Shown in pieces: positions 653 through 52,998 of a DNA stretch of 64,000 bases; positions within the stretch are counted from its first letter, which is position 1, and each line of letters starts with the position of its first letter. The notes beneath the pieces are model-generated. The model did not search any database, had not been told where the DNA came from, and saw only the letters and a list, made by a program, of their open reading frames with translations. A program made the position numbers and the translations under genes. The stretch spans positions 16,190-80,189 of the forward strand of contig CANKAU010000007.1 in NCBI GenBank assembly GCA_947479915.1, written 5' to 3'. The DNA is from Chloroflexota bacterium (lineage in GTDB: Bacteria > Chloroflexota > Dehalococcoidia > UBA2979).

Positions 653-1321
653 GTGACGAACCCCCTTCCCGACGAGGAACGCACCGAGCCGTTGCGGCTC
701 ACGGTGGTCTCCGACTTCATCTGACCGTGGTGCTACATCGGTCTCGTGGAGATCGAACGGCTGTACCGCAACTGGGACATTCAGCTCGACTGGGCGCCCT
801 TCTTCCTCGACCCGTCCATCCCGCCGGAGGGCCGTCCGCGCGCCCCGCAGGCGCCCGGTAGCCCCGAGACGCCCGTGGAGGCCCGCGGCAAGCGCCTCGG
901 CCTCGACTTCCGTCGAGGTCGCACGTTCACGCCGCACACGATCCTGTCGCTTCAGGCGGGCGAGTGGGCCGCCGCGACCGGGACGACGCAGCAGGTGATC
1001 GACTTCCACCGGGCGCTGTTCAAGGCGTACTTCACGGACTTCGAGGACCTGATGCAGATCGACACGCTCGTCCGGCACGCCGACGAGGTGGGACTGGACG
1101 GCGCGACGCTGCGCGAGGTGCTGGAGCAGGGCACCTTCGCCGACACGACGAACGAGGCGATCGAGCAGTCCTACGCGGTGGGCGTGCAGGCGATCCCGAC
1201 GTTCATCCTCGACGAGAAGTACGCGGTGGTCGGCGCGCAGGAGTACGACACGCTGGAGCGCGTGATGGAGCAGCTCAAGGCGAAGCGCCGCGAGACGCCC
1301 CTCCCCGACCCGCACGCGTAG
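653..1321 (+). CDS. DsbA/FrnE-like thiol:disulfide oxidoreductase with an in-frame TGA at 722-724 in place of the first Cys of the CPWC motif (candidate selenocysteine, otherwise a pseudogene)
   Basis: From GTG at 653 the frame reads MTNPLPDEERTEPLRLTVVSDFI-TGA-PWCYIGLVEIERL..., aligning to the FrnE N-terminus (KIDVWSDIACPWCYIGKRRLE). The listed ORF 746..1321 is the downstream remainder. High GC3 continues upstream of the TGA. Confidence 0.55.
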
Positions 1322-1425: not shown

Positions 1426-1947
1426 TCACTCCGAGTACCCGATCGCCTCAAAGACTGAGACAAATGGTGCCGGAGGCTGCGCGGAGACGGACACCCCGAA
1501 GCACCTTGGGTAATTCGTCGTTGGCGCACCTAGGTACCAATCAGAGAACTTCGGCATCGGGAAGTCGAACGTCCCGCTGCCTTGATCGTCGACTAGTACA
1601 GCCGCCGGAGTCAGTGTCGGTGCAGGATGATCAGTGCCTTGTAGGTGGAGGGCTGCGGAAACTCGGCTCCTCGGTGGAAAACCTGTGATCGACACGGTGA
1701 CTCGCTCACCCGGCTTAGCGGCCAAGGGTGAAATCGCCACTACCCGCGCCTGCCCATCTCTCGCCGCCTGTGATCGGTAGTCGGTACGACTCTCGGCGCA
1801 TTGATCGGGAGCGGGCTGTGCCTGTGTGTCTGTCGCTTGAAGCGACGCGACCGTCGGCGACGCGGTCCTCGTCGGACGAACTGACGGCATTCCGCATGCA
1901 GCGAGAAGCACACAGCCGACGATGGCGGCCCGCCTGATGCGCTTCAT
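1426..1947 (-). CDS. Putative lipoprotein, paralogous to the genes at 12556 and 13182
   Basis: Signal peptide with lipobox (MKRIRRAAIVGCVLLAACG). Shares the motif GERVTVSITGFPP with the RVTLRISGFPATT motif of the downstream paralogs. Confidence 0.55.
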   Translation of the reverse strand: MKRIRRAAIVGCVLLAACGMPSVRPTRTASPTVASLQATDTQAQPAPDQCAESRTDYRSQAARDGQARVVAISPLAAKPGERVTVSITGFPPRSRVSAALHLQGTDHPAPTLTPAAVLVDDQGSGTFDFPMPKFSDWYLGAPTTNYPRCFGVSVSAQPPAPFVSVFEAIGYSE

Positions 1948-1994: not shown

Positions 1995-2450
1995 CTACAC
2001 GCGGCGGGGCAGCTCCACGACGGCGGTGCCCTGCACGGGCTTCTCGCCGCGATCGTTCTCCAGCGTGACGTCGAGGTGGACGGCGCCCGCGCCGGTGCCC
2101 TCGAAGTCGCCCTCACCGTTGACGTCGGTGACCAGCGCCACACACCGGAGCAGATCCTCGTGGTGGACGGGGCGGCGGAACGAGACGTCCAGGCTCAGGA
2201 CGCGGCCCAGCGGGCCCATCCAGTCCGTGACGAGGCGCGTGAGCATCGAGGCTGACATGGGGCCGGGGACGATCGGCGCGGGGAGGCCGGCGGCCTTCGC
2301 ACGCACCGGGTCGGTAAAGCGGCCGCCGCCGTCCGGCAGGCCCGCCGCGGCGATGAACGCCACCACGTGGTCATGCGTCGGCTGCTGGGTCTCCTCGAAC
2401 TCGTCGCCGACAGAGACATCCTCGAAGTAGCGCTGAGTCAGATCGGCCAC
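1995..2450 (-). CDS. MaoC-like (R)-specific enoyl-CoA hydratase, hotdog fold
   Basis: Protein MADLTQRYFEDVSVGDEF... has the MaoC dehydratase signature. Its start is 2 nt downstream of the previous gene's stop. Confidence 0.8.
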   Translation of the reverse strand: MADLTQRYFEDVSVGDEFEETQQPTHDHVVAFIAAAGLPDGGGRFTDPVRAKAAGLPAPIVPGPMSASMLTRLVTDWMGPLGRVLSLDVSFRRPVHHEDLLRCVALVTDVNGEGDFEGTGAGAVHLDVTLENDRGEKPVQGTAVVELPRRV

Positions 2451-2451
2451 G

Positions 2452-3663
2452 CTATTCCCCCTCGCCCGTCGGCTTCACCTGGCGGTGGGCGCTGGTGCTC
2501 TCCACCGCGGCCACATCCTCGCCGTGCTGGTTGGCGTAGCGCGTGCGGCGCACGACAAAGACCATACGGCCGCTGCGGCCGGTCTTCTCGTACACCTCCT
2601 TCACCTGTGCGAAGCCCTCGATCGTGTCACCGGGGCGCACCGGGAGGTAGTACTCGTGCCGCTGCCCGGCCATCATCGTCGTGTCGCCGAAGGTGACCTT
2701 CGGGTCGGGCGGGCCGTCCATGCGCACGGACTGCACGATGCCCGGCGGGGCGATGATCCCCTTGTGCGGGCCGGCCGCTGCGAACGCCTCGTCGGTGTAG
2801 AGCGGATTGGTCTGGTCCAACGCCTCGCAGTACTCCGCGATCAACTCGCGCGTGACCTCGAACTTGCCGACAGGCACCTCGCGCCCCACGACGGAGCGGT
2901 CGTACTCCAGGTCGTCGCCACCCAGGCTGCCCTGCCCGCTGGTGCCCGGCAGGAACACCGCGGCGCCCGAGGGGCGCGGACGCGGCTCGACGCCGTCCTT
3001 CGTGTCGTCCAGGTACATCGGCGCGAACGAGGCGCTCGGGTCGCGCAGCGTGGCGACGAGGTCGTCCATCGTCTTGATGGTGCGGTCGAAGCGGGTGAGG
3101 CAGCGGCCGAGCGCGCTCACGAAGTGCGAGTCCGACGAGCCGATGACGCGCAGCCCGCGCGCATCGGCGAGGTCGAACGCGCGGCCGTTCTCGTAGTCGT
3201 TGCTGCCGCCGTTGAGCGCCTCGATCACCCGGACGCCCTCGAGCGTCACGCCGCGCTCATCGACGTGCTCAACGCAGCCGATGCGCGGACGCCCCGCGTG
3301 CGCACCGACCGCAACACCACCGGTCTCCCACGCGGCCTTGAAGACCTCCTCGTACGGGAGGGATACCGACGACAGATCGAACTTCGCAAGGAACTCCGGC
3401 GTGACGCCGAAGACCAGCACGTGGCCGATCGTCGTCTCCACCTCGACGCCGCGGAGCACGACGGCGTCGTAGCGAGCCGCCAGCTCCGAGTAGTCGCGAT
3501 CGAGGTCGAAGCGCCGGTGCTCGGTGACGACGAAGCCGTCGATCTTGAAGCCGAGCTTGCGGCGGGCGGCGATCCATTTCAGGTAGCCCTCCACCGTGCC
3601 GCCGGCATCATCGGATCCGTCCGAAGAGTGCACGTGGAGATCGAGGTACGTAGCGTCAGGCAT
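2452..3663 (-). CDS. Fusion protein: N-terminal PHP-family metal-dependent phosphoesterase domain plus C-terminal hotdog (MaoC_dehydrat_N / HadA-like) domain
   Basis: Sequence MPDATYLDLHVHSSDGSDD... carries the PHP HxH motif. After a Pro/Gly linker a hotdog domain follows (VGKFEVTRELIAEYCEALDQTNPLYTDEAF...). No stop codon separates the two parts. The long listed ORF 2452..3744 was trimmed to the Met start at 3661-3663. Confidence 0.7.
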   Translation of the reverse strand: MPDATYLDLHVHSSDGSDDAGGTVEGYLKWIAARRKLGFKIDGFVVTEHRRFDLDRDYSELAARYDAVVLRGVEVETTIGHVLVFGVTPEFLAKFDLSSVSLPYEEVFKAAWETGGVAVGAHAGRPRIGCVEHVDERGVTLEGVRVIEALNGGSNDYENGRAFDLADARGLRVIGSSDSHFVSALGRCLTRFDRTIKTMDDLVATLRDPSASFAPMYLDDTKDGVEPRPRPSGAAVFLPGTSGQGSLGGDDLEYDRSVVGREVPVGKFEVTRELIAEYCEALDQTNPLYTDEAFAAAGPHKGIIAPPGIVQSVRMDGPPDPKVTFGDTTMMAGQRHEYYLPVRPGDTIEGFAQVKEVYEKTGRSGRMVFVVRRTRYANQHGEDVAAVESTSAHRQVKPTGEGE

Positions 3664-3740
3664 CAGGCAGGCCTTCCCGCAAACTCCCGGTGGAGCGGCG
3701 TCGGGGTGGAGTGGCGATTGTCGCGCGCAATCGCAGGGCG

Positions 3741-5264
3741 TCAATCCGAAGCGTGATGGTCTTCCGTGAGGCGAGCGCGCACGAGGTGGCGCTGCACCTT
3801 CCCGGATGCCGTGCGCGGCAGCGCGTCTGTGCCCACCTCGATGCGGCGCGGCACCTTGTACGCGGCGAGCCGCGCGCGCAGGTGCGCATCGATCGCCGCG
3901 ACGTCGAGGCCACCCGTGCCGGCTGCCGGCACCACGACCGCAACCACGAGCGCGCCCCAGCGCTCATCCGGGATGCCGACCACCGCGCATTCCTCGACGC
4001 CCGCGAACGCGAGCAGTGCGGACTCGACCTCGGCGGGGTAGACGTTCTCTCCGCCGGAGACGATCAGGTCGTCGCGCCGGTCGGCGACGTAGAGGTAGCC
4101 CTCGTCGTCGAGGTACCCGAGATCCCCCGTGTGCAGCCACCCGTCGCGGATCGCCTCGGCAGTGGCCTCGGGCCGGCCGAGGTAGCCGGCGCAGACGGTC
4201 GGTCCGCTGACGACGATCTCGCCGATCTCGCCGGACGCCGCCTCTGCGCTCACGCCCTCGGCAGTCGCGACCTCGATGCGGACGGTGGTGCCGGGCAGCG
4301 GCAGCCCCGCGGAGCCGAGCTTGCGCAGCGCGTCCGCCGAAGACAGCGTGGCGACCTGCGAGGCGGTCTCGCTGAGGCCGTAGGTCTGCAGCACCGGCAC
4401 TCCACGCGCGGCGGAAGCCTCCAGCAGCGGGCGCGGCGCGGGGCCCCCACCGAGCAGCACGGCACGGAGCGTCGAGGGGTACGGCGCGTCGTCGAGCGCG
4501 TACATGCGCTGCAGCATGTTCGCAACGACCGATAGCAGCGACACGCGCTCCTCGCGCACGGAGCGCACCACGCGCGCCTCGTCGAAGCGCTCGTGGATGA
4601 CGGCGGTCGTGCCGTAGATCGCGCTGCGCAGCAGGATCGACAGCCCACCCACGTGGTACAGCGGCAGGCATGCCAGCCAGCGATCGGCCGCCTCGACACC
4701 GAGGTTCGCGGCCGACGCCACGGCGCTCCAGTAGAAGTTGCCGTGCGTCAGCACCGCGCCCTTCGGGCGTCCCGTAGTGCCGGACGTGTAGATCACGCTG
4801 TGCGGCTGCTCGAACGGGATCGAGGTCGACCCGACGAGCGGCGTCGCCGTGTGCCATGCCTGGTCGTCGGCGGGCAGCAGCGTCACGCCTGCCTCGGCGG
4901 CGGCGGCGCGCGCTTGCTCGAGGTGATCGGCGTCCGCGATGAGGTAGCGCGCGCCCGCGTCGCGCAGCTGCCACGCGATCTCGCCCGCAGTGAGTCGTGC
5001 GTTGTGCGGGGCGAGCATGCCGCCGGCGCGCGTGATCGCGTGCGCGAAGACCGCGAAGCCGTTGCCGTTCGCGTGCAACAGACCGACCGGTTCCCCCGGC
5101 GCGATGCCGAGCGCGGCAAGCCGCCCGGCCGCCGGTGCCACGCGCGCCTCGAGGTCCGCGTAGGTGAGCGCTTCGCCGTTGCACTCGACGGCGAGCGTGT
5201 CGGAGTGCGTCACAGCGCGCCGCGCGACCCAGTCGCCGAGGTCCACCGAGAGCAGTTCCGGCAT
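3741..5264 (-). CDS. menE: o-Succinylbenzoate-CoA ligase (AMP-forming)
   Basis: Adenylate-forming enzyme motifs (YTSGTTGRPKG, GYGLSE) and position in the men operon. Start reassigned to MPELLSVDLG (ATG at 5262-5264); the upstream part of the listed ORF is an Arg-rich artefact. Confidence 0.85.
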   Translation of the reverse strand: MPELLSVDLGDWVARRAVTHSDTLAVECNGEALTYADLEARVAPAAGRLAALGIAPGEPVGLLHANGNGFAVFAHAITRAGGMLAPHNARLTAGEIAWQLRDAGARYLIADADHLEQARAAAAEAGVTLLPADDQAWHTATPLVGSTSIPFEQPHSVIYTSGTTGRPKGAVLTHGNFYWSAVASAANLGVEAADRWLACLPLYHVGGLSILLRSAIYGTTAVIHERFDEARVVRSVREERVSLLSVVANMLQRMYALDDAPYPSTLRAVLLGGGPAPRPLLEASAARGVPVLQTYGLSETASQVATLSSADALRKLGSAGLPLPGTTVRIEVATAEGVSAEAASGEIGEIVVSGPTVCAGYLGRPEATAEAIRDGWLHTGDLGYLDDEGYLYVADRRDDLIVSGGENVYPAEVESALLAFAGVEECAVVGIPDERWGALVVAVVVPAAGTGGLDVAAIDAHLRARLAAYKVPRRIEVGTDALPRTASGKVQRHLVRARLTEDHHASD

Positions 5265-5274
5265 GGCGCTTCCT

Positions 5275-6387
5275 CTACCCCGTGACCCAGTCACCCTCGG
5301 CGACCTGCGCCCACGCGCCGTCCTGCGGCGCGATACCGAGGCCGGGCGCATCGAACGCGCGGAGCATGCCATCGTGCGCGACAAGCGTCTCCGCCACGAG
5401 GTCAGCCGCGAGGTGTTCGCCGGTGCCGAGGCCGTGCGCGATGCCGCCGGGGATCGCCCCGCCGATCGCGCTCGCGAGATGCAGTGCCGCCGCCGTCCCG
5501 ATCGAGGAGTCGAACGTCGTCGTCGCAAACGCGCCGATGCCCAAGCGCGCCGCGCGCTGCGCGATCGCGAACGCGGGTCGGAGTCCCCCGAGGAACATCG
5601 GCTTCAGGACGACGAGGTCCGCCGCGCGCAGTTCGAGGACGCGCTCCAGCGTTGCGGGGTCAGTCACTGACTCATCGGCGGCGATCTTCGGCGCCTCGTC
5701 CCCCAGCGCACGCGACGCCTCGCGCACGCGGGCGAGTGCCTCGACGTCGCCTGCGGCCACGGGCTGCTCGATCAGCTCGATGTGCAGCGGCGCGAGCGCG
5801 CACACGGCTGCGATCGCCGTCCACTCGTCCCACGCGCCGTTGGCGTCGAGGCGGATCGCGGCGTCCGGGACGGCATCCCGCAGTGCGTGGATCCGCCGCA
5901 CGTCGTGCTCGGGGCTGGCGGTGCCCACCTTCGCCTTCAGCACGCGGTAGCCCTGCGCGCGGGCCTCCGCGCCAAAGCGCGCGGTCTCCTCGGGCGTGCC
6001 TTCGCCAATGACCGCGTTCACGCGCACCGCCGGCGCCACGTGCTCCGTCAGCAGCGCGGCGATCGGCACCCCGGCGCGTTGCCCCTCGAGGTCGAGCGCG
6101 ACGACGTCCAGCGCGCAGCGCAGCGCCTGCACTCCGGGCGCACGAGGATCGAGCGCTTCGGCGAGCCCCGCGAGCAGCCCGACGTCGTGCCGCGCCAGCA
6201 GCGCGAGTACGTCTTCGATCGTGCCGTAACCGAGTGATGCGATGGGTGAGGCCTCGCCGTAGCCGACCCGCCCGTCGTCGTCGCGCACCTCGATCAGCAC
6301 GCCGCGGCGATCCGCCATCGCGCCGTGCGCCGCCTCGAAGCGGTGTCGCATCGGCAGGCGGAACGCGCGCCAGCGGAGAGATGCCAT
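5275..6387 (-). CDS. menC: o-Succinylbenzoate synthase (enolase superfamily)
   Basis: MASLRWRAFRLPMRHRF... with the enolase-superfamily fold pattern, 370 aa. ATG at 6385-6387 lies 3 nt from the menA stop. The listed 663-aa ORF over-extends across menA. Confidence 0.85.
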   Translation of the reverse strand: MASLRWRAFRLPMRHRFEAAHGAMADRRGVLIEVRDDDGRVGYGEASPIASLGYGTIEDVLALLARHDVGLLAGLAEALDPRAPGVQALRCALDVVALDLEGQRAGVPIAALLTEHVAPAVRVNAVIGEGTPEETARFGAEARAQGYRVLKAKVGTASPEHDVRRIHALRDAVPDAAIRLDANGAWDEWTAIAAVCALAPLHIELIEQPVAAGDVEALARVREASRALGDEAPKIAADESVTDPATLERVLELRAADLVVLKPMFLGGLRPAFAIAQRAARLGIGAFATTTFDSSIGTAAALHLASAIGGAIPGGIAHGLGTGEHLAADLVAETLVAHDGMLRAFDAPGLGIAPQDGAWAQVAEGDWVTG

Positions 6388-6389
6388 GA

Positions 6390-7328
6390 CTAGTTCGAGA
6401 GGCCGATCGCGAGCAGCAGCCCGAAGATCAGGTGCAGGCGCGCCATCGCACGGAGCGCGGCGTTCAGCGGCGGCCCGTCCGTACGGCGCAGCGAGACGGC
6501 GACCGGCATGATCGCAGCGGGCACGGAAAGCCACGACAGCAGCACGAGGCCGGAGAAACTCCCGAGGAGCCACAGCCCCGCTGCCGCGACGTACGCCCCC
6601 GCGACCACGACCACCAGTTCTGCGCGCGCGAGCCGCCGACCGAGGTACACCGCGAGCGTGTACTTCCCGGCGAGCCGGTCCTGGTCGATGTCGCGCACGT
6701 TGTTCACCACGAGGATCGCGGTCACCGTCAGCGCCACGGGCACCGACGCCGCGAGCACGTTGCTCGTCACCCGACACGCGTCCACGGCGCAGGACTGCAC
6801 GTAGTACGTCCCGGCGACCGCGACGACGCCGAAGAAGATGAACACGAAGACCTCGCCCAGGCCGCGATAGCCGAAGGGCCACGGGCCGCCGGTGTAGGTG
6901 ACCGCTGCGAGCATCGAGGCGAGCCCGATCGCGACGATCGGCCAGCCTCCGAGGTACGTGAGGTAGAGGCCGGCCACGGTCGCGAGCGCGAAGAAGGCGA
7001 TCACGCCCAGCGTGACCTGCCGTTCGGACAGCAGCCCGCGCTGCGTGACGCGGATGGGGCCGAGGCGCGTGTCCGTGTCCGCGCCTCGACGAAAGTCTGA
7101 GAGGTCGTTCGCGAGATTCGCGCCGGCCTGCAGAGCGAGCGCACCGAAGAGCGCCGCGAGCGCGGCCAGTGGCGCGCGGATGCCATCGTGCACGGCGACG
7201 CCGGTGCCCACGGCGACCGGAACAACGGCGGCGGTCAGCGTGGGCGGGCGGATCGCCATCAGCCACACGCGGAAGCGGCTCATCGTCGGCTCCGAGGCGG
7301 CACGACCGGCGGCCGAGGCCTTAGCCAT
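6390..7328 (-). CDS. menA: 1,4-Dihydroxy-2-naphthoate polyprenyltransferase (UbiA family)
   Basis: Polytopic membrane protein with the [15 protein letters not shown] motif. The N-terminus aligns to MenA. Overlaps the menB stop by 8 nt. Confidence 0.85.
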
Positions 7329-8151
7329 GGAACGGCAGTCGCTGGAACTTGCTGAAGTCGGGCTGGCGCTTCTCGACGAACGAGTTGCGGCCTTCCTTCG
7401 CCTCGTCGGTGGTGTAGTAGAGCATCGTCAGATCGCCCGCGAGCACCTGGAGGCCCGTCGCGCCGTCCGTGTCCGCGAGGAACGCGTTCTTCAGGAAGCG
7501 GATCGCGGTGGACGACTTCGCGAGGATCTCGTTCGCCCAGGTCACGCCCTCGGCTTCGAGGTCTTCGAGCGGCACGACCTTGTTTACGAGGCCCATGTCC
7601 AGCGCCTCCTGCGCACCGTACTGGCGGCAGAGGTACCAGATCTCGCGGGCCTTCTTCGTCCCGACGAGTCGCGCGAGCATGGACACGCCATAGCCCGCGT
7701 CGAACGAACCGACGCGCGGGCCGGTCTGCCCGAAGCGGGCGTTCTCTGCGGCGATCGTGATATCGCAGATGACGTGCAGCACGTGGCCGCCGCCGATCGC
7801 GTAGCCCGCCACGAGGGCGATCACCGGCTTCGGCATCTCGCGGATAAAGCGCTGGAGCGGGAGCACGTTCAGCCGCGCGCTGCCCTCGGTGTCCACGTAG
7901 CCGGCGTGGCCGCGGATGCGCTGATCGCCGCCGGAGCAGAAGGCGCGGCCGCCGGCGCCGGTGAACAGCACCACGCCGATCGCGTCGTCCTTCGCCGCGT
8001 CCATGAACGCGTCGGCCAGCTCGTCGATGGTCAGCGGGCGGAAGGCGTTGTGCACCTCGGGGCGGTTGATGGTGATCTTGGCGATCCCACCCGACTTCTC
8101 GTAGACGATGTCGGTGTAGGTCTTGGCCGCCTGCCAGCGGATGTCGGTCAT
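7321..8151 (-). CDS. menB: 1,4-Dihydroxy-2-naphthoyl-CoA synthase (crotonase fold)
   Basis: [39 protein letters not shown]...FCSGGDQ... is unmistakably MenB. ATG at 8149-8151. Confidence 0.95.
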
Positions 8152-8174
8152 CGGTCCCCCTGCACGTTTCGGGA

Positions 8175-9029
8175 TCAGGACTGGCGCTCGCGCACACCCA
8201 CCAGGAACTCGCGCACCATCGCGTTGAACGCGTCCGGCCGCTCCAGGTGTGCCGCGTGGCCGGCGTCCTCGATCAGACGCATCGTAATGTCCGGGATGGC
8301 TTCGGCCATCTCCCGCGCGATCACGCTGAACTTCGTGTCCAGCGTACCCGCCGTCAGGTGCACAGGCACCCCGATCCCACCGAGGCGGTCGCCCACCCAC
8401 TCCTGTGAGCCGGTGCCCATGCCGCGCAACGACCCCGCGAGCCCCACCGGGTTCTGCGCGAGCCGCCCTCGACGCAGCGCCGCGCGCTGGTCAGCCGAAA
8501 GCGTGCGCTGCTGGCTGTCCCACAAGGCGATGGACTGCCAGAAGTCGACGAACGCCTCCAGCCCCTCCCGTTCGAGGCGCTGCGCCAGCACCTCGTCCGC
8601 CGCCACGCGCGCTTCACGCTCCTCGGCCGTCGCGAGGCCGGGCGTGGCGCCCTCCAGGAACAGCGCGGAGACGACGTCGGGGCGGTGCACCGCCACCTGC
8701 AGCGCGACGCGCCCGCCCAGCGAGTAGCCGAGCCACGCCGCACGCTCGTGCCCGAGCACGCGGAGCAGCGCCGCGAGGTCATCGACGGCGCGGCGCATCT
8801 GGTAGCGGTCGAGGGCGACCGGGCAGCCCGAGCGCCCGTGCCCGACGAGGTCGACGGCGATCGTGGTGAAGTCGGGCGCGAGTACCTCGACGAGCGAGCG
8901 CCACGAGGCACCCGTGCCGGTGAAGCCGTGGATCAGGACGACGGGCGGGCCGTTCCCCGCCACCTCGGCGTGCAGGTTCAGCCCATCGATGTCGACGTCG
9001 TGGCCGGTCGAGGCGATCGGAGCGGCCAC
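8175..9029 (-). CDS. menH: 2-Succinyl-6-hydroxy-2,4-cyclohexadiene-1-carboxylate synthase (alpha/beta hydrolase)
   Basis: Alpha/beta-hydrolase motifs ([20 protein letters not shown]). GTG start at 9027-9029 lies immediately after the menD stop. The upstream part of the listed ORF is an artefact. Confidence 0.8.
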
Positions 9030-9033
9030 CGGG

Positions 9034-10818
9034 CTACGCCCGCGCCGCGACCACTGCGAGGCGGACGGCCTCCGCGGCGCGCGCCCACACCTGCTGGTGC
9101 AGCGCAACGTTGCGGTCGCGGTCGGTGCGGATTTCGAGGACATCGAGGCCCGGGCGCTGGAGCGCGTCGCCGATCGCCGCGCTCGCGGCGGCGCCGGGTT
9201 CGAGCAGTGCGTGTCGGCCGCCGTGCAGCGCCACCGCGTGGCGGAGGTCGAGGCCGTGCGGCGTGCCCCACCACTCCTCGAAGCGCGCGGGCATGCTCGT
9301 GCGCTGGGGGAGGAAGGAGAAGATGCCACCGCCGTCGTTGTTCACCAGTACGACGGTGAGGCTCAGGTCGTGGCGACGGATCGGCCAGAGGCCGTTCACG
9401 TCGTGCAGGAACGACAGGTCGCCGATCATCAGCGCGACCGGCCCGCCGGCCACCGCGGCCGCACCGGCAGCGCCCGAGATGACCCCGTCGATGCCACTGG
9501 CGCCGCGCGTGCCGACGATGCGGACGGCACGGTCCATGTTCGGAAAGAACGAGTCGATATCGCGCACGGGCATCGAGTTACCCGCGACGAGTGTCGCGCC
9601 CTCGGTCAGCGCGCCCGCGATGTCGAGGACCACCTGGCCTTCGAACGGCTCGTCGAGGTTGGCGATCGCGTCATCCAGCGCGGTGCGCGCCGCGGCGTTC
9701 GCGTCGCACCACAGCGCCAGCCACTCCGGGCGCGCCGAGGAACGCGCGTCGAGCGCCTCGAGCAGCGCGGAGCAGAACGCCCCGGGGTCGGCGGCCACAG
9801 CGAGCGAGGAGCGCAGGTCGGGGTCACGCCACCCGCCGCTCGCAGCCACGGCCGGGTCGACGAGGATCTGCGTCGTCGCGGTGAGCGAGGCGAGCCATGT
9901 GAATACGGGCTTCGAGGTCGGCTGCGCGCCGAAGCGGATGGTGACCTCGGGCGTGGCGGGCTCCGTGAAGGCGGTGACCCGGGCGAGCACGTCCGCACGG
10001 TCGATGACCGCGTCGAACGAGTGGTGCCCTGCGCGCATCCCGGACAGCGGATCCGCGATGATCGGCCAGCCCAGCACCTTCGCGAGCGCCGCGATTGCGG
10101 CGGCGGGGAGCCCGCTCGACTCCGGCCCGCAGACGATGACACCTCGACGTCCCGACACCACCGAGGCGACCCGGGCGATGTCGTTCGGGGTGGGCGCGGC
10201 AGGCGCGGCGATGGCGCGGCGCATCTCCGGCGTGTCGAGGTCGAACGGGAGCGTCTCGGAGTCCGCGTCCACCAGCGGCTCGCGGAACGGGATGTTCAGA
10301 TGCACCGGCCCCGCGGGCGCCTCGCACGACACGGCAGCGGCACGCGCGCCCGTCGCGGCGGCGTACCGCTCGAGGTCGGCGAGCGCACCGGCGTCGGCGA
10401 CTGGGAGGTCGACGGCCCACTTCACGTGCGTGGAAAAGATGCCGACCTGGTCGACCGTCTGGGCGGTGCCCAGGTCGCGCGCCTCGGGCGGGCGGTCGGC
10501 GGTGAGGAAGATCAGCGGGACGCGCGACAGGCGCGCCTCGACGGCGGCGGGGAGGAAGTTCGCGGCGGCGGTGCCGGACGTGCAGGCGAGGGCCACCGGC
10601 TCGCCGGTCTGCCTCGCGATGCCGAGCGCGAAGTAGCCCGCGGAGCGCTCGTCGAGGTGCAGCCACACCTTGAACGGCGACCCGGGCGACGTGGCGGCGA
10701 TGGTGATGGGGGTGTTCCGAGAGCCCGGAGCGATGACGAAGTGCCGCACACCGTTCTGGTGAAGCGACTGCAGCAGCGCGTGCACGGTGCGATCGGCGGG
10801 CTGGGCCATCCAACCCAT
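9034..10818 (-). CDS. menD: SEPHCHC synthase (ThDP-dependent)
   Basis: MGWMAQPADRTVHALLQSLHQNGVRHFVIAPGSRNTPI... with the ThDP-binding motif GDLSFLHD...NNDGGGIF. Confidence 0.9.
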   Translation of the reverse strand: MGWMAQPADRTVHALLQSLHQNGVRHFVIAPGSRNTPITIAATSPGSPFKVWLHLDERSAGYFALGIARQTGEPVALACTSGTAAANFLPAAVEARLSRVPLIFLTADRPPEARDLGTAQTVDQVGIFSTHVKWAVDLPVADAGALADLERYAAATGARAAAVSCEAPAGPVHLNIPFREPLVDADSETLPFDLDTPEMRRAIAAPAAPTPNDIARVASVVSGRRGVIVCGPESSGLPAAAIAALAKVLGWPIIADPLSGMRAGHHSFDAVIDRADVLARVTAFTEPATPEVTIRFGAQPTSKPVFTWLASLTATTQILVDPAVAASGGWRDPDLRSSLAVAADPGAFCSALLEALDARSSARPEWLALWCDANAAARTALDDAIANLDEPFEGQVVLDIAGALTEGATLVAGNSMPVRDIDSFFPNMDRAVRIVGTRGASGIDGVISGAAGAAAVAGGPVALMIGDLSFLHDVNGLWPIRRHDLSLTVVLVNNDGGGIFSFLPQRTSMPARFEEWWGTPHGLDLRHAVALHGGRHALLEPGAAASAAIGDALQRPGLDVLEIRTDRDRNVALHQQVWARAAEAVRLAVVAARA

Positions 10819-10849
10819 CTTATCCCTGTGTGAAGACAGCGTCGCGAGG

Positions 10850-10927
10850 CGGAGGAGCGTCGCGCTCCTCCGGGGCGTTCGAGGCGCACGAGGCGGCCCA
10901 CCCCTGCCCCTCCCGGCGCGGGAGGGG
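10850..10927 (-). other. Two GC-rich perfect hairpins in the menF-menD intergenic region: CGGAGGAGCG-tcg-CGCTCCTCCG (10850-10872) and CCCCTCCCG-gcg-CGGGAGGGG (10907-10927)
   Basis: Seen directly as inverted repeats with 3-nt loops inside the 288-nt non-coding gap between menF and menD. No U-tract follows either hairpin. Confidence 0.4.
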
Positions 10928-11106
10928 TTCTGAATCAGATGGATGATGCGGGGGTTGCACCCCCAACGCCCCCCAGGACGCGCTGCGGTAGGCAGCGCGG
11001 CGGGACGAGAACGGGACGTGCACTCGGGCAACCCGCACCTGCTTCGGCCCCTCGCCTGCGAAGCGGAAGAGGGCGGCGGTGAGGGTTCCGCCGTCCGAGG
11101 GGACGA

Positions 11107-12447
11107 CTACGCGCCGAGCGCCTCGGACAGGGGGCGGTACTTCAGTTGGACTTCGTCGAGCTCCTGCTGCGGGACGGAGTCGCCCATGATGCCGTTCCCC
11201 GCGAACAGCCACGCACGAGGCCCCCGCACCACGGCGGAGCGCAGCCCGACGGCGAACTCGCCGTCACCGGCGCCGTCCATCCAGCCCACCGGGCCGGCGT
11301 ACCAGCCGCGGTCGAACGCCTCGTGCTGGGTGATGACTTCGCGGGCGCGTTCGAAGGGCCAGCCGCAGACGGCGGGCGTGGGGTGGAGGCGCTGGACGAG
11401 GTCGAGGACGTCCACGCCCGGGCGCACCCGGCCGCTGATCTCCGTCGACAGGTGCTGGATGTTGCGCAGACGGCGGAGCTGCGGCTGGTTCGGCGCGACG
11501 AGGTCCTCGGTCGCGCCGTCCAGGCGCTCGCGGATCGCGCGCACGACCGTCTCGTGCTCGATGCGGTTCTTCGCACTCTCAAGGAGCGCGGTGCCGAGGC
11601 GCTCGTCCTCCTCGGGGTCGGTGCCGCGCCGCGTCGAACCCGCGAGGCCGAGTGCGCGCACGCGCCCCTGGGTGAGCGAGACGAGCAGCTCCGGCGATGC
11701 GCCGAGGAACGTGGCGTCCCCGCTGGTCATGGTGAACAGGTGGCAGTCGGCGTAGTTCGCCCGCAGCCGCGCCAGCGCCCGCCCGATCGAGATCGGGGCG
11801 TCGCCGGCCAGCGTCTGCGTGGAGGCGAGCACGGCCTTCTCGTACAGCCCGGCGCGCACCTCGGACGCGATCGTGGCGACGCTGGAGAGCCAGCGCTCCC
11901 GGTCAATCGGGGTCTCGACCCGCAGCGCGGTGGCGTCGAGGTCGCCCGGCGACCGCTGGGCACGCTCGACGAGCGCGGCGACGTCGTTCGGGGCGGCACT
12001 CGGCGCGAGGATCAGCGCGTTCGACTCGCCGGTGGCGAGGAACAGCACGCGCGGCAGCACCAGCCATCCGGCGCCGAAGCCCTCCCACGGCGTCTTCGCC
12101 GGGACGTTCGGGTTGAAGCGGAAGCCGCCGAGGAGTCTCGGCCGCAGCCCCGGCAGGTCGCCCCCGCCGGGCCGGTCCACCAGTGCGCGCGCCTGTGCGC
12201 CCAACGCGCCCGGCCCCGCGCCCCACGGTGCCTCGATGCGCCCCGCCTCGCCGACGGCGACCATCGCCAGCCCGAGCGCCGGCCGCTCGTACGAGGCGAC
12301 GACTCCCGCGCCCTGCGGGTCGTCCAGCAGTCGACGGGGGTCGAAGGAGTCCGGCAGCGTCAGCGACAGGAACGCGTCCGCGCCCGACTTCCGCCGTGCC
12401 GCCTCGATGCGCGCGAGCACGTCCCCGGCGTCGATGTCACTCGCCAC
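11107..12447 (-). CDS. menF: Isochorismate synthase
   Basis: MASDIDAGDVL... with the chorismate-utilising enzyme C-terminal domain (GGDGEFAVGLRSAVV, FAGNGIMGDS). GTG start at 12445-12447. Confidence 0.85.
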   Translation of the reverse strand: MASDIDAGDVLARIEAARRKSGADAFLSLTLPDSFDPRRLLDDPQGAGVVASYERPALGLAMVAVGEAGRIEAPWGAGPGALGAQARALVDRPGGGDLPGLRPRLLGGFRFNPNVPAKTPWEGFGAGWLVLPRVLFLATGESNALILAPSAAPNDVAALVERAQRSPGDLDATALRVETPIDRERWLSSVATIASEVRAGLYEKAVLASTQTLAGDAPISIGRALARLRANYADCHLFTMTSGDATFLGASPELLVSLTQGRVRALGLAGSTRRGTDPEEDERLGTALLESAKNRIEHETVVRAIRERLDGATEDLVAPNQPQLRRLRNIQHLSTEISGRVRPGVDVLDLVQRLHPTPAVCGWPFERAREVITQHEAFDRGWYAGPVGWMDGAGDGEFAVGLRSAVVRGPRAWLFAGNGIMGDSVPQQELDEVQLKYRPLSEALGA

Positions 12448-47249: not shown

Positions 47250-47743
47250 TCGGGGACGGCGGCCCAGCCGAGCGCCTCGGACATCTGTTGCTCCACCTCG
47301 GGCGACAGACGCATGAACAGCGCGGTCGCCTCCGCGAGGCGCTCGCCGTCCGCATCGTCCACGCTCGCCTCGACCTCGATGCGGCGTCCGCGCATCCGCA
47401 CCACACGCCCGTGCACGATCAGCGTCCCGGTCGTGCCCACTGTCTTGCGGTAACGCGTCTCCATCTTTGCCGTGACGCCCAGCGCGCGGTCGGCGGCCCA
47501 CATCGCCCACGCCATCGACTCGTCGAGGAGTGCGGCCAGCACGCCGCCGTGCATGACGCCCGGGAAGCCCTGATCCTCCGGCTTGGGATCGTAGCGGCAG
47601 ACCACCGCGCCCCCGCCCGCCTCGGAGACCTCGCGGCTGAAGCGCAGATGCAGGCCATGCTGGTTACGGGCGCCGCACGCGAAGCAGACCTGGTCGTAGA
47701 GACGCTCGTCGAAGGCGCCCGCGGCGTGCTCCGCGTCAGCCAT
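47246..47743 (-). CDS. PaaI/YbgC-like hotdog thioesterase
   Basis: [11 protein letters not shown] motif of the 4HBT/PaaI family. Start trimmed to MADAEHAAG. Confidence 0.75.
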
Positions 47744-48138
47744 CAGGCGAGGTGCACGGAGGCGGTACCGGTAAGCAGCGCCTCGCCGCTCGCGTCCTCG
47801 CAGGAGACGTCGTAGGTCGCGACGCCGTCGTGCTCCGATTTCAGCACCGCGCGCGCGGTGACCTCGATGGGAACAAGCGCGGGCTGGCGCCAGCGCACCT
47901 TCAGCGACCCGCCACGCTCCCACGCCTCGCCGAAGGCGTTCGTCATGGCCTCCGACACGAGCGCGAGGACGAGCATGCCGTGCGCGACGGGGCGACCGAA
48001 CGGGCCGGCGTACGCCTCGGGCGTCTCGCGGTGGATCGGGTTCGGGTCGCGCGCCGCGACCGCGTACTTGTCGACACGCGGCTGGTCGATGAGCCGCGTC
48101 ACGGGCTCCACGGCGGAGGGTGGGGTCACTGCGGTCAC
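47743..48138 (-). CDS. MaoC-like dehydratase (HadB-like)
   Basis: DPNPIHRE...AHGM hotdog hydratase motif. Confidence 0.8.
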   Translation of the reverse strand: MTAVTPPSAVEPVTRLIDQPRVDKYAVAARDPNPIHRETPEAYAGPFGRPVAHGMLVLALVSEAMTNAFGEAWERGGSLKVRWRQPALVPIEVTARAVLKSEHDGVATYDVSCEDASGEALLTGTASVHLA

Positions 48139-48581
48139 TCGGCGCTCCCAGCGCTAGACGGATCAGTCGATGCGGCATCGTCGGGGGGTGGGACGAGCAC
48201 GGAGGCGCGCGACACGGCGACCACCTCGTCGCCCGCGCGCGCCTCCGCGTCGAACGACGCCATGAGCGCGCCGCGACGGACGGCGTGCGAGGCAACGAGC
48301 ACGGTGACCGTGAGCGGCTCGCCGATGCGCACAGGGCGCATGGACTCGTGCTCCTGGCCGGTGTGCATCACGCCCTTCGGGATCTCGATCTGCGAAAGGA
48401 GCGTGGCGAGCATCAGCGCGCTCATCATCACGGGCGGGACGTGCTCGCCCCAGCGGTCGGCCGGCTCACCGGTGGCATCAAGGTATGCGCGCACATCGTC
48501 GGCGCTGATCGTGAGATCGACGGGCGGCAGCACGTCGCCGCGAGAGAGGGTGTCGAAGGCGATTCGTGTAGGCGAGGTCAC
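48135..48581 (-). CDS. MaoC_dehydrat_N / HadA-like hotdog protein
   Basis: N-terminal-half MaoC dehydratase family protein, overlapping the next gene by 4 nt. Confidence 0.7.
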   Translation of the reverse strand: MTSPTRIAFDTLSRGDVLPPVDLTISADDVRAYLDATGEPADRWGEHVPPVMMSALMLATLLSQIEIPKGVMHTGQEHESMRPVRIGEPLTVTVLVASHAVRRGALMASFDAEARAGDEVVAVSRASVLVPPPDDAASTDPSSAGSAE

Positions 48582-52066: not shown

Positions 52067-52519
52067 CTAGTCAGGCGGCAGGCGATCGTCCGGCGAGAGG
52101 ATGGCGAACATCGCGTTCGCAACGCCGACCAGACGCCCCTGCCCGTCGAACAGCTCGGCGTTGGTGTGCCACGCACGGCGTCCTCGGCGCAGCACCATGC
52201 CGACGACGCGCAGGCGATCGCCCGGCGCGGGTCGCAGCCAGCGGATGTCGAGCTGCATCGTCGCCGACATGTCGTGAGGCGCGATCATCGAGTGGATCGC
52301 GGCGGCCATCGCGCTGTCCGCGATCATCGTCCACATGCCGCCGTGCAGGACGCCGTTCGGGTTGTAGTGGCGCGGCGCGACGTTCAGCGTGATCTCGGCC
52401 CACCCTTCGCCCGCCGCCGTGAGCGCGAAGTCGAGGTCCCGGAACAGCGGTACGGTCATCTTCTGCTGAAGCCGCTGCAGGATGACCGGGTCGTTCACTC
52501 GCGCAGTGTCATCCGTCAT
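52067..52519 (-). CDS. PaaI-family hotdog thioesterase
   Basis: NPNGVLHGGMWTMIADSAM motif. Confidence 0.8.
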   Translation of the reverse strand: MTDDTARVNDPVILQRLQQKMTVPLFRDLDFALTAAGEGWAEITLNVAPRHYNPNGVLHGGMWTMIADSAMAAAIHSMIAPHDMSATMQLDIRWLRPAPGDRLRVVGMVLRRGRRAWHTNAELFDGQGRLVGVANAMFAILSPDDRLPPD

Positions 52520-52578: not shown

Positions 52579-52998
52579 CTAGCCCTCGCGCGCCCGGCAG
52601 TCCGGGCACACGCCGTAGACCTCGAGCCGGTGCGCGTCGACGCGGTAGCCGGTACGACGGGCGATATCGTCCAGCAGCCCCTCGAGGTCCCCGGACGCGA
52701 AGTCGCTCACGGCGCCGCACTCGGAGCAGACGAGGTGGTGGTGGTGGCCGCCGGAGGCGAGGCGATAAGCGGCGGTGCCGTCGTCCAGCACGACCTGGCA
52801 GACAATGCCGAGGTCCTGCAGCAATCGCAGCGTGCGAAAGACGGTAGCGCGCCCCACGGCAGGGGCTGCCTCGACCACGTCGTCGGCCATGAAGTGATCG
52901 CCCAGGCCCTGCATCACCTCCACGAGCGCGCGACGCGGAGCGGTCAGGCGGAAGCCCTCGCTCGCGAGCGCGCTCTCAATGCTGTCGATGCTGGCCAT
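52579..52998 (-). CDS. fur: Fur-family metalloregulator (Fur/Zur/PerR)
   Basis: HHHHLVCSECG...CPDC metal sites with an N-terminal wHTH. Confidence 0.85.
   Translation of the reverse strand: MASIDSIESALASEGFRLTAPRRALVEVMQGLGDHFMADDVVEAAPAVGRATVFRTLRLLQDLGIVCQVVLDDGTAAYRLASGGHHHHLVCSECGAVSDFASGDLEGLLDDIARRTGYRVDAHRLEVYGVCPDCRAREG

Follow-up and report, generated by a model that had tools for sequence, protein, structure and literature searches.

A PHP–hotdog fusion and its MaoC-like partner beside the men operon of Dehalococcoidia: a candidate module for the DHNA-CoA hydrolase step

Results

The men operon of the window (that is, the whole analysed stretch of 64,000 nucleotides) is followed on the same strand by two genes carrying three components: a PHP-fold metallohydrolase domain fused to a HadA-type hotdog domain (hotdog A), and a separate MaoC-like hotdog protein (hotdog B). 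The three components form a conserved module, which adjoins men genes in most loci of the window's clade. Tentatively, with a probability of about 0.4 and from sequence comparison, we read it as an acyl-CoA hydrolase specific to Dehalococcoidia, which would carry out the DHNA-CoA hydrolase (MenI) reaction.

The men operon and the fusion gene

NCBIfam and Pfam scans place the operon menF-menD-menH-menB-menA-menC-menE at 3741..12447 of the minus strand, with menF at 11107-12447, menD at 9034-10812, menH at 8175-9011, menB at 7321-8151, menA at 6390-7328, menC at 5275-6387, and menE at 3741-5264 (all minus). Matches to menD, menH, menB, menE, and isochorismate synthase exceed NCBIfam equivalog or subfamily cut-offs, and the same gene order recurs beside the module in related loci. 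The fusion gene (2452-3663, minus strand) starts with ATG at 3663 and encodes 403 aa, with the N-terminus MPDATYLDLHVHSSDGSDDAGG and zero internal stops. The menE stop codon ends at 3741, which leaves the same-strand spacer of 77 nt (3664..3740, minus strand) described in the first-pass annotation. Motif, promoter, and terminator scans of this spacer found a ribosome-binding-like site, GGGAAGG; one weak sigma-70-like match (9 of 12) at 3744-3717, overlapping the menE stop; and no terminator-like hairpin, the terminator-like sites of the scan occurring at background frequency. By the common strand, the short spacer without a terminator-like site, and the conserved adjacency, the module is assigned to the men operon, and co-transcription is predicted.

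Contigs from ENA, NCBI, and Logan assemblies, 16 in all and assembled independently, encode the identical 403-aa protein, and about 100 full-length PHP+hotdog orthologues have identities of 50–99%. The fusion gene is real: a frameshift or an assembly artefact is ruled out by the identical protein on the 16 contigs and by fused orthologues down to 50% identity. Hence the uninterrupted PHP–hotdog reading frame seen at first pass holds; the frameshift named there as a possible refutation was not found, and split genes do exist in relatives. Fused orthologues bear only automatic database names, e.g., ‘acyl dehydratase/predicted metal-dependent phosphoesterase TrpH’, and a literature search for the PHP–MaoC combination returned no publication, in line with the earlier statement that the fusion appears undescribed.

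The domain order proposed earlier is borne out by Pfam and NCBIfam matches: the PHP domain (aa 1–222; 2998..3663, minus strand) is followed by a Pro/Gly-rich linker (aa 223–256; 2896..2997, minus strand) and by hotdog A of the MaoC_dehydrat_N type (aa 257–403 and the stop codon; 2452..2895, minus strand). The linker matches the intergenic region of unfused relatives, and stop codons of split loci are found at the equivalent of approximately aa 207–225. The AlphaFold2 model of the whole protein has pLDDT 91.7 and pTM 0.85, with low scores only in the linker (residues ~223–256; mean pLDDT of 71–74 for 10-residue blocks over aa 231–250); the pTM suggests that the PHP–hotdog interface is fixed in the two-domain chain.

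The PHP domain

Pfam PHP_C matches residues 157–207 of the fusion (52 bits; cut-off 21.3). The best NCBIfam match of the PHP part, CehA/McbA metallohydrolase at residues 8–164, is below its cut-off, and the Pfam PHP model PF02811 does not match the window protein, but does match its relatives. In alignments of 24, 90, and 16 sequences, the candidate metal ligands H10, H12, D18/D19, E48-H49, E74/E76, H81, H122, D178, and H180 are invariant. Since all metal ligands are invariant, the PHP part is probably catalytic. The barrel fold and the ligand pattern, HxH, (E)H, E, H, H, DxH, place the domain in the PHP superfamily. Foldseek aligns it to PHP structures with probability 1.0, the nearest being 2anu, 7rty, 3e38, 3e0f, and 7ug9, and a profile search of PDB sequences retrieves 3e0f at E 1.6e-5. 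The nearest PHP relatives with known activity, which by profile and Foldseek are distant, act on nucleotide phosphoesters. The CehA/McbA family we take to be hydrolases of naphthyl carbamate esters; if so, carboxyl-type ester hydrolysis occurs in the PHP fold. Within the small-PHP subfamily to which the domain belongs, one protein occurs as a fusion with an ADP-ribosylglycohydrolase.

The two hotdogs

Hotdog A matches Pfam FAS1_DH_region (PF13452, MaoC_dehydrat_N type) over residues 257–386 (81 bits; cut-off 22), PDB profiles of MaoC-like dehydratases, ChsH1, and HadA, and, by Foldseek, structures 3exz, 4ffu, 4rlw, and 4w78. It carries TNPLY instead of D-x-N-P-x-H, with Tyr at the His position as in ChsH1. 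With this degenerate motif, and directly upstream of a B subunit, it falls among the HadA/MaoC_dehydrat_N non-catalytic subunits, and judging by the motif is of the usual non-catalytic A-subunit type. HadA NCBIfam equivalogs score far below their cut-offs on the fusion (33.6 vs. 180), so hotdog A is not an orthologue of mycobacterial HadA.

Hotdog B (1995..2450, minus strand; 151 aa) starts with GTG at 2450, and the fusion ends with TAG at 2454-2452; thus, a MaoC-type gene does come next, as claimed at first pass, but after one spacer base rather than two. It scores 34.9 bits with Pfam MaoC_dehydratas (PF01575; cut-off 27), as expected for a MaoC-family single hotdog fold, and HadB is its sole PDB sequence match. 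Alignment with HadB (4rlj_B/5zy8_B) shows no Asp36/His41 dyad and no hydratase-2 motif in any of the 76 aligned orthologues. The Asp36 position and the loop length are variable, and the His41 position is occupied by Phe in 74 of the 76, those that keep an Arg-Phe motif; this motif (Arg44-Phe45) follows the variable loop, and ‘HG’ of HadB is replaced by ‘PG’. Invariant or nearly so are G15, R44, F45, W77, R92, H97, and D127. The absence of the dyad excludes the default hydratase function, so the name MaoC hydratase does not fit the partner as far as catalysis goes; the HadA/HadB-like arrangement noted earlier describes the gene order well, but not HadAB-type catalysis. The HadAB-type dehydratase was rejected on the catalytic motif, from the HadB alignment and the 76 orthologues. 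The 4HBT match of hotdog B is not significant (17.4 bits; cut-off 20.6), and its family is named from Dehalococcoidia only. Neither module protein matches the NCBIfam MenI/DHNA-CoA hydrolase models, which leaves both outside the known MenI families. A separate canonical hydratase pair with the DPNPIH motif lies at 47743-48581 of the window.

Split and fused forms of the module

In related genomes, the PHP protein, hotdog A, and hotdog B are encoded by separate adjacent genes, so the fusion is the derived form of a three-component module. A survey of related genomes for this architecture shows PHP and hotdog A fused in at least 34 of 80 genome loci (and in about 100 protein clusters) and separate but adjacent in at least 31 of the 80. 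Hotdog B always follows PHP/hotdog A, in most loci with gaps from −14 to about +20 nt. All module hits come from Dehalococcoidia/Chloroflexota. In a far sister clade of 25 loci, all three genes and the Arg-Phe motif are present, but none of the loci is men-linked; there, the module adjoins an SDR/FabG-like gene, an amidase, and an alpha/beta hydrolase, neighbours that come from closely related genomes and suggest no coherent pathway. Only three related loci have an APS kinase gene next to the module. A conserved hypothetical gene (~205–230 aa, no family match) stands beside the module in 18 loci and is not present in the window.

Linkage to men genes

A locus was counted as men-linked when at least three true men orthologues lay no more than 10 kb from the module. 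By this measure, 36 of the 51 loci of clade II, to which the window belongs, are men-linked, as are 22 of the 29 with at least 8 kb available on both sides; the seven well-flanked loci without linkage include one with a generic crotonase directly upstream. Three arrangements are seen. In arrangement (a), menE comes immediately before the module, in the same orientation. In arrangement (b), the gene immediately before the module is menC, and the locus lacks menE: menFDH(B)AC remain beside the module, and menE lies elsewhere, as does menB in about half of these loci. In arrangement (c), the module is convergent with a men operon whose products are 34–54% identical to those of the window (MenB, 78–80%). 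The link with the men pathway, positional at first pass, is strengthened by this recurrence. A same-strand men gene precedes the module by no more than 175 nt in 17 loci, which suggests co-transcription; in approximately ten loci, a gene of the opposite strand stands between menE and the module, which must therefore have a promoter of its own there.

The earlier statement that no MenI is recognisable was too strong: a PaaI/YdiI-type 4HBT hotdog thioesterase is encoded at 52067-52519 of the window. Its match is generic (TIGR00369, 64.5 bits), and the DHNA-CoA hydrolase equivalog PRK10293 gives 33 bits against a cut-off of 226; by family it could be an alternative, real MenI. Within 10 kb of the module-linked men operons, no homologue of this thioesterase was found. 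Neither the module nor this thioesterase was found near 80 men operons of other lineages (MenA ~50% identical), sampled by a MenA profile in metagenome contigs; the sample consists mostly of such other lineages, and the absence of the module applies to them. The module is therefore a lineage-specific addition. Some of the men linkage may reflect synteny passed down inside a single class.

Discussion

By analogy with HadAB and ChsH1–ChsH2, we infer that the two hotdogs probably pair as a heterodimer and bind an acyl-CoA thioester. The conserved P62-G63 pair, where the oxyanion hole usually lies, would hold the carbonyl of the thioester, and the whole module would hydrolyse its substrate, neither hydrating nor dehydrating it. 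For the clade of the window, 1,4-dihydroxy-2-naphthoyl-CoA is the most likely substrate. The module may then supply the DHNA-CoA hydrolase step, the sole soluble hydrolytic step for which these men operons have no gene. The catalytic water could come from the PHP metal site or from new hotdog residues, e.g., H97/D127 of hotdog B.

The MenI reading is favoured by the genomic evidence (fusion and fission of the components, the men linkage, the lack of a nearby PaaI-type thioesterase in module-linked operons, and the lineage-specific distribution) and by the proteins themselves (the lost dyad, the invariant PHP ligands, the pTM of 0.85), given also that known MenI enzymes are all of the hotdog fold and were recruited independently in different lineages (PMC8918352; bioRxiv 10.1101/2020.12.21.423900). 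It is weakened by the thioesterase at 52067-52519, which could itself be MenI; by the sister clade and the seven clade II loci that are not men-linked; and by the activity of the nearest characterised PHP relatives on nucleotide phosphoesters. Arrangement (b), without menE and often without menB, is unlike a strict partnership with the CoA-dependent steps. Moreover, to our knowledge, neither MaoC-type hotdogs nor PHP enzymes are known as thioesterases, and both points count against the MenI reading. A more specific form of it, in which the dead MaoC-type heterodimer is an acyl-CoA platform and the trinuclear metal site of the PHP domain cleaves the thioester or, in a coupled fashion, the CoA nucleotide, would make the module a new DHNA-CoA hydrolase; we regard this form as unlikely. 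If true, this would make MenI metal-dependent here and bring thioester-directed chemistry into the PHP superfamily for the first time.

Among known systems, the (3R)-hydroxyacyl-ACP dehydratases HadAB/HadBC of Mycobacterium and the steroid enoyl-CoA hydratase ChsH1–ChsH2 share with the module adjacent MaoC_dehydrat_N and MaoC genes, single-hotdog folds, and a non-catalytic A subunit with an NP(L/I)Y motif; ChsH2 is also a precedent for an extra domain attached to a hotdog subunit. The module differs by Arg-Phe in place of the Asp/His dyad in its B subunit, by the fused or adjacent PHP metallohydrolase, and by its context, which is menaquinone biosynthesis and not fatty-acid or steroid metabolism. 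Known MenIs (YdiI of E. coli, Slr0204 of Synechocystis, MenI of S. aureus and Listeria) are similar in the hotdog fold and the proposed reaction, and fill the same gap in the pathway as lineage-specific, non-orthologous recruits, as is proposed for the module; however, they are 4HBT/PaaI-type, metal-independent homotetramers of ~130–150 aa subunits with Asp/Glu/His active sites and no PHP partner. Small PHP phosphoesterases, namely TM0559 (2anu), BAD_1165 (3e0f/3o0f), Cv1693 (2yb1), and RNase AM (7ug9, 9etk), have the same PHP barrel with a PHP_C extension, HxH...EH...E...H...H...DxH ligands, and length of ~210–290 aa, but only 15–19% identity, TM ~0.5–0.65, and no association with hotdogs or CoA-ester pathways. 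PsfC of the fosfomycin pathway, a dinuclear iron PHP-superfamily protein, is alike in size, fold, and the C-terminal motif; it differs by lacking an H122-equivalent ligand and a hotdog partner and by acting on a phosphonate hydroxy-acid.

The activity of PHP relatives on nucleotides leads to the alternative of general CoA-ester/adenine-nucleotide processing, not specific to MenI: the hotdogs would bind the acyl-pantetheine, and the PHP domain, e.g., a 3'-phosphatase or a pAp-type phosphatase, would act on the 3'-phospho-ADP end, with the men linkage reflecting CoA-ester clearing or recycling, or shared regulation. The nearest solved relative by sequence, BAD_1165 (3e0f), presumably belongs to the COG0613 group, whose characterised members we take to be a 3',5'-bisphosphonucleotide phosphatase and RNase AM. 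The JGI name of the module proteins, ‘phosphoesterase TrpH’, and the retention of all nine ligands of the trinuclear phosphoesterase site, including H122, absent from PsfC, agree with this role; so do the ADP-ribosylglycohydrolase fusion of a small-PHP relative, suggestive of ADP-type ligands, the APS kinase adjacent to the module, and the generic acyl-CoA contexts (crotonase or SDR) of the far clade and some clade II loci. Still, the fusion and APS kinase hints come from very few sequences, the structural likeness to nucleotide-acting PHP enzymes is moderate (TM ~0.5–0.6), no known step of menaquinone synthesis requires CoA dephosphorylation, and a housekeeping role is hard to square with a tight and repeatedly rearranged men linkage; we consider this role possible, at rather long odds. 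Somewhat more doubtful is a module unrelated to menaquinone, serving another acyl-CoA pathway, with men adjacency as class-level inherited synteny. All hits being from Dehalococcoidia/Chloroflexota, the loci are not phylogenetically independent; men linkage is missing from the entire sister clade and from about a quarter of the well-flanked loci of clade II, and some loci have an opposite-strand gene after menE. On the other hand, the adjacency survives convergent inversion, loss of menE/menB from the cluster, the change between split and fused forms, and the divergence of Men proteins seen in arrangement (c), and the 17 short same-strand spacers suggest co-transcription.

Two enzymatic alternatives are much less probable. 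A HadAB-like (3R)-hydroxyacyl-CoA/ACP dehydratase or enoyl hydratase with an attached phosphatase would explain the gene order and folds shared with HadA/HadB and ChsH1/ChsH2, but is very improbable given the non-conserved Asp36 position, the Phe for His41 and ‘PG’ for ‘HG’ replacements, the Tyr of hotdog A at the His position, as in non-catalytic A subunits, HadA/HadB NCBIfam scores all far under the cut-offs, and the separate DPNPIH pair in the window. A PHP domain that works, on the model of PsfC, as a dinuclear non-haem iron oxidase or decarboxylase on a substrate bound by the hotdogs, and not as a hydrolase, is scarcely to be expected either. PsfC itself is described as an enzyme with dinuclear non-haem iron (bioRxiv 10.64898/2026.01.15.699783). 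By structure, it (7rty) ranks second or third among the neighbours (TM ~0.61–0.63), with a profile match at E 1.5e-3 and a similar C-terminal ‘GGSDAH...G.C.T.F’ stretch; however, Gln in PsfC replaces the H122 ligand that is invariant in the module family, AHAG is retained in the phosphoesterase 3e0f, an uncharacterised PHP protein, TM0559, is structurally no more distant than PsfC, and the classical men pathway has no missing oxidative step.

We know of no gene assigned to the DHNA-CoA hydrolase step of menaquinone/phylloquinone synthesis in many phyla, and a literature search for MenI and Dehalococcoidia returned no paper. The men-linked module is a concrete candidate for this step in Dehalococcoidia. 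If the MenI reading is true, it would give the first function to several hundred small PHP proteins, to a dyad-replaced MaoC-like subfamily, and to the PHP–hotdog partnership, and, if the PHP site proves catalytic, would add to the chemistry known from the PHP superfamily. Should the module turn out not to be MenI, the tight linkage is still a sign of an accessory reaction, so far unrecognised, in the quinone biosynthesis of these bacteria.

Gene order and domain structure

According to the ORF list and family scans, the men operon of the window reads along the minus strand in the order menF (11107–12447), menD (9034–10812), menH (8175–9011), menB (7321–8151), menA (6390–7328), menC (5275–6387), and menE (3741–5264). 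It is followed, after a 77-nt spacer, by the fusion gene (2452–3663) and, with one base between the fusion stop codon and the GTG start, by the partner gene (1995–2450), both on the same strand. The 403-aa fusion protein starts MPDATYLDLHVHSSDGSDD and matches Pfam PHP_C at residues 157–207, FAS1_DH_region/MaoC_dehydrat_N at residues 257–386, and, under the model's cut-off, the NCBIfam CehA/McbA metallohydrolase domain at residues 8–164; the partner matches Pfam MaoC_dehydratas. Therefore, the first-pass annotation described the sequence correctly, as a PHP domain fused to one hotdog domain (hotdog A) and followed by a MaoC-type hotdog protein (hotdog B).

The fusion is real: gene calls on 16 contigs, drawn from ENA, NCBI, and Logan assemblies, include the identical 403-aa protein, and a search of 5.8 billion proteins yields about 100 full-length PHP–hotdog proteins (50–99% identity), those with a named source all coming from Dehalococcoidia/Chloroflexota MAGs. 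When each species is represented by a single genome, relatives occur in at least 571 genomes. The AlphaFold2 model, built from 90 sequences, is confident (pLDDT 91.7, pTM 0.85), with low confidence only in the Pro/Gly linker.

On the same strand as the partner, and 47 nt downstream of it, is an ORF for a predicted lipoprotein (1426–1947, minus strand, 173 aa, …LLAACG…), with a G+C-rich hairpin (CGCCCCGCGAGCGGGGCG) between the partner stop codon and this ORF. No family model matches the lipoprotein, 80 related loci contain no homologue, and the public annotation of the identical contig omits it.

Hotdog subunits

In the alignment of the partner with HadB of M. tuberculosis, the position of the catalytic Asp36 is occupied by a non-conserved residue, and that of His41 by Phe45. 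Among 76 partner orthologues, the canonical D-x-N-P-I-H is replaced by a variable-length loop and an Arg-Phe motif, the latter kept in 74, and "PG" stands where the "HG" motif is expected. The hotdog A motif is NP(L)Y, as is typical for non-catalytic A subunits, ChsH1 and HadA among them. Hence, the hydratase-2 dyad is found in neither subunit, and the earlier naming of the partner as a MaoC hydratase does not hold in the catalytic sense. The conserved polar residues R44, R92, H97, and D127 of the partner could form a different active site.

The window contains a second HadA/HadB-like pair of overlapping genes (47743–48138 and 48135–48581, both on the minus strand). It is probably the real (R)-specific hydratase/dehydratase of this genome, since its B subunit keeps the canonical motif (…RDPNPIHRE…).

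Split and fused modules

We reconstructed the genes of the module (PHP, hotdog A, and hotdog B) in 80 related genome loci. Many of these have a stop codon near residue 207–225 of the PHP part, then a separate hotdog A gene (~150 aa), and then hotdog B. In nearly all loci hotdog B directly follows hotdog A, and in most cases the stop and start codons overlap or nearly abut. The neighbor-joining tree of the PHP parts has two clades: clade I, whose members share 38–44% identity with the window protein, contains split modules only, and clade II comprises split lineages and one fused lineage that includes the window protein. The fusion is thus the derived state. Such a pattern, with the parts joined in one lineage and encoded apart in others, counts as classical evidence of joint function.

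Stand-alone PHP genes, 58–59% identical to the PHP half of the fusion, were seen in loci L074, L077, L079, and L082 (match approximately 10001–10645), where no hotdog A or B homologue is detectable and no men genes are present within the locus; hence, the PHP component also exists alone.

PHP domain

The expected metal ligands (H10, H12, D18/19, E48-H49, E74/76, H81, H122, D178, and H180) do not vary in any of three alignments (24, 90, and 16 sequences). In a Foldseek search with a separate model of just the PHP domain, the closest structures are TM0559 (2anu), PsfC (7rty), BVU_3505 (3e38), BAD_1165 (3e0f/3o0f), RNase AM (7ug9), EndoQ, and PHP domains of Pol III alpha, all at TM ~0.5–0.65; by sequence profile, BAD_1165 (E 1.6e-5) is the nearest solved protein, followed by PsfC (E 1.5e-3). 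AHAG is kept at the H122 ligand in BAD_1165, while PsfC, described as a dinuclear iron enzyme (bioRxiv 10.64898/2026.01.15.699783), has Gln. Because of this ligand, the domain resembles a trinuclear hydrolase more than it does PsfC.

At E ≤ 1e-10, the small-PHP subfamily has ~690 clusters, most of which are stand-alone proteins (~210 aa); one 532-aa protein from the representative search (P0308) fuses an ADP-ribosylglycohydrolase domain to it. In three related clade I loci, a gene identified by eye as adenylylsulfate (APS) kinase abuts hotdog B (L057, 11605–12144; L060, 11641–12183; L063, 9981–10529), which hints weakly at 3'-phospho-adenosine nucleotides as possible ligands of the PHP part.

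Linkage to men genes

Comparison of the window Men proteins with the 80 loci by tblastn shows at least three true men orthologues within 10 kb of the module in 36 of the 51 clade II loci, and in 22 of the 29 with at least 8 kb on both sides. One of the seven well-flanked unlinked loci has a generic crotonase upstream; the other unlinked clade II loci are mostly on short contigs. The 25 clade I loci are never men-linked, their neighbors being an SDR/FabG-like gene, an amidase, and an alpha/beta hydrolase.

Three arrangements are seen in linked loci: (a) menFDH(B)ACE followed by the module on one strand, as in the window; (b) a split module directly after menFDH(B)AC, with menE not in the locus; and (c) a module and a men operon in convergent orientation, the Men proteins sharing just 34–54% identity with those of the window, except MenB (78–80%). 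In 17 loci, no more than 175 nt separate the module from a menE or menC gene preceding it on the same strand; in about ten, a conserved opposite-strand hypothetical gene stands between menE and the module. Eighty men operons of other lineages, collected from metagenome contigs with a MenA profile, lack both the module and any homologue of the PaaI-type thioesterase of the window; therefore, the module is a lineage-specific addition to men clusters.

Several module-adjacent men clusters are devoid of menB, menE, or both (L003/L013, L012, L016, L034, L061, L068–L070, L081), and some of these carry a generic crotonase (30–37% identical to MenB) a few kb downstream. A hypothetical protein of ~205–230 aa is conserved directly beside the module in 18 loci (L018, 3458–4147, minus; L013, 9275–9895, minus; L020, 2361–2990, plus; and 15 others), divergent upstream or, in the convergent type, downstream on the same strand; neither Pfam nor NCBIfam matches it, and the window does not encode it. 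A DsbA-family thioredoxin-fold gene (746–1321, plus strand, in the window) is a conserved opposite-strand neighbor of the men-linked module, ~1.7–3 kb downstream in 28 related loci (e.g., L005, L013, L069), accompanied in 16 loci by a DoxX-like membrane protein gene identified by eye (e.g., L030, 11696–12139). These neighbors may point to a connection of menaquinone with disulfide or redox functions.

Possible function

Of the soluble steps, the men operons with the module leave only DHNA-CoA hydrolysis (MenI) and the final methylation without a gene. The MenI enzymes known so far are thioesterases with the hotdog fold that different lineages recruited independently of one another (PMC8918352; bioRxiv 10.1101/2020.12.21.423900). 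From genomic context only, the most economical reading, with a probability of about 0.4, is that the module acts as a DHNA-CoA thioester hydrolase: this is suggested by the men linkage, two hotdog domains no longer able to hydrate, a Gly retained at the oxyanion-hole position, and an intact metal hydrolase. Counted against a strict menaquinone role are the absence of men linkage in clade I and in the seven well-flanked clade II loci. An accessory activity of the PHP domain, directed at CoA or adenine nucleotides, is a less probable reading; an unrelated acyl-CoA function, with the men adjacency being inherited synteny, is somewhat more doubtful still. With the dyad missing from both hotdog subunits, a true hydratase is very improbable, and a PsfC-like oxidase, given H122, slightly more so.

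A generic thioesterase remains a conventional alternative MenI candidate: the PaaI/YdiI-type 4HBT hotdog protein encoded at 52067–52519 (minus strand) scores 64.5 bits with TIGR00369, and 33 bits against a cut-off of 226 with the DHNA-CoA hydrolase equivalog PRK10293. It is adjoined by a gene (52579–52998) that by eye encodes a Fur-like regulator.

The literature that was searchable has nothing on a PHP domain with MaoC, nor on MenI with Dehalococcoidia, and databases give automatic names only, in agreement with the initial impression that the PHP fusion was undescribed. The components of the module are members of known superfamilies; what appears undescribed is the PHP–hotdog combination, the replacement of the catalytic motif, and the association with men genes. 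The comparative signal is strong and lends itself to direct testing.
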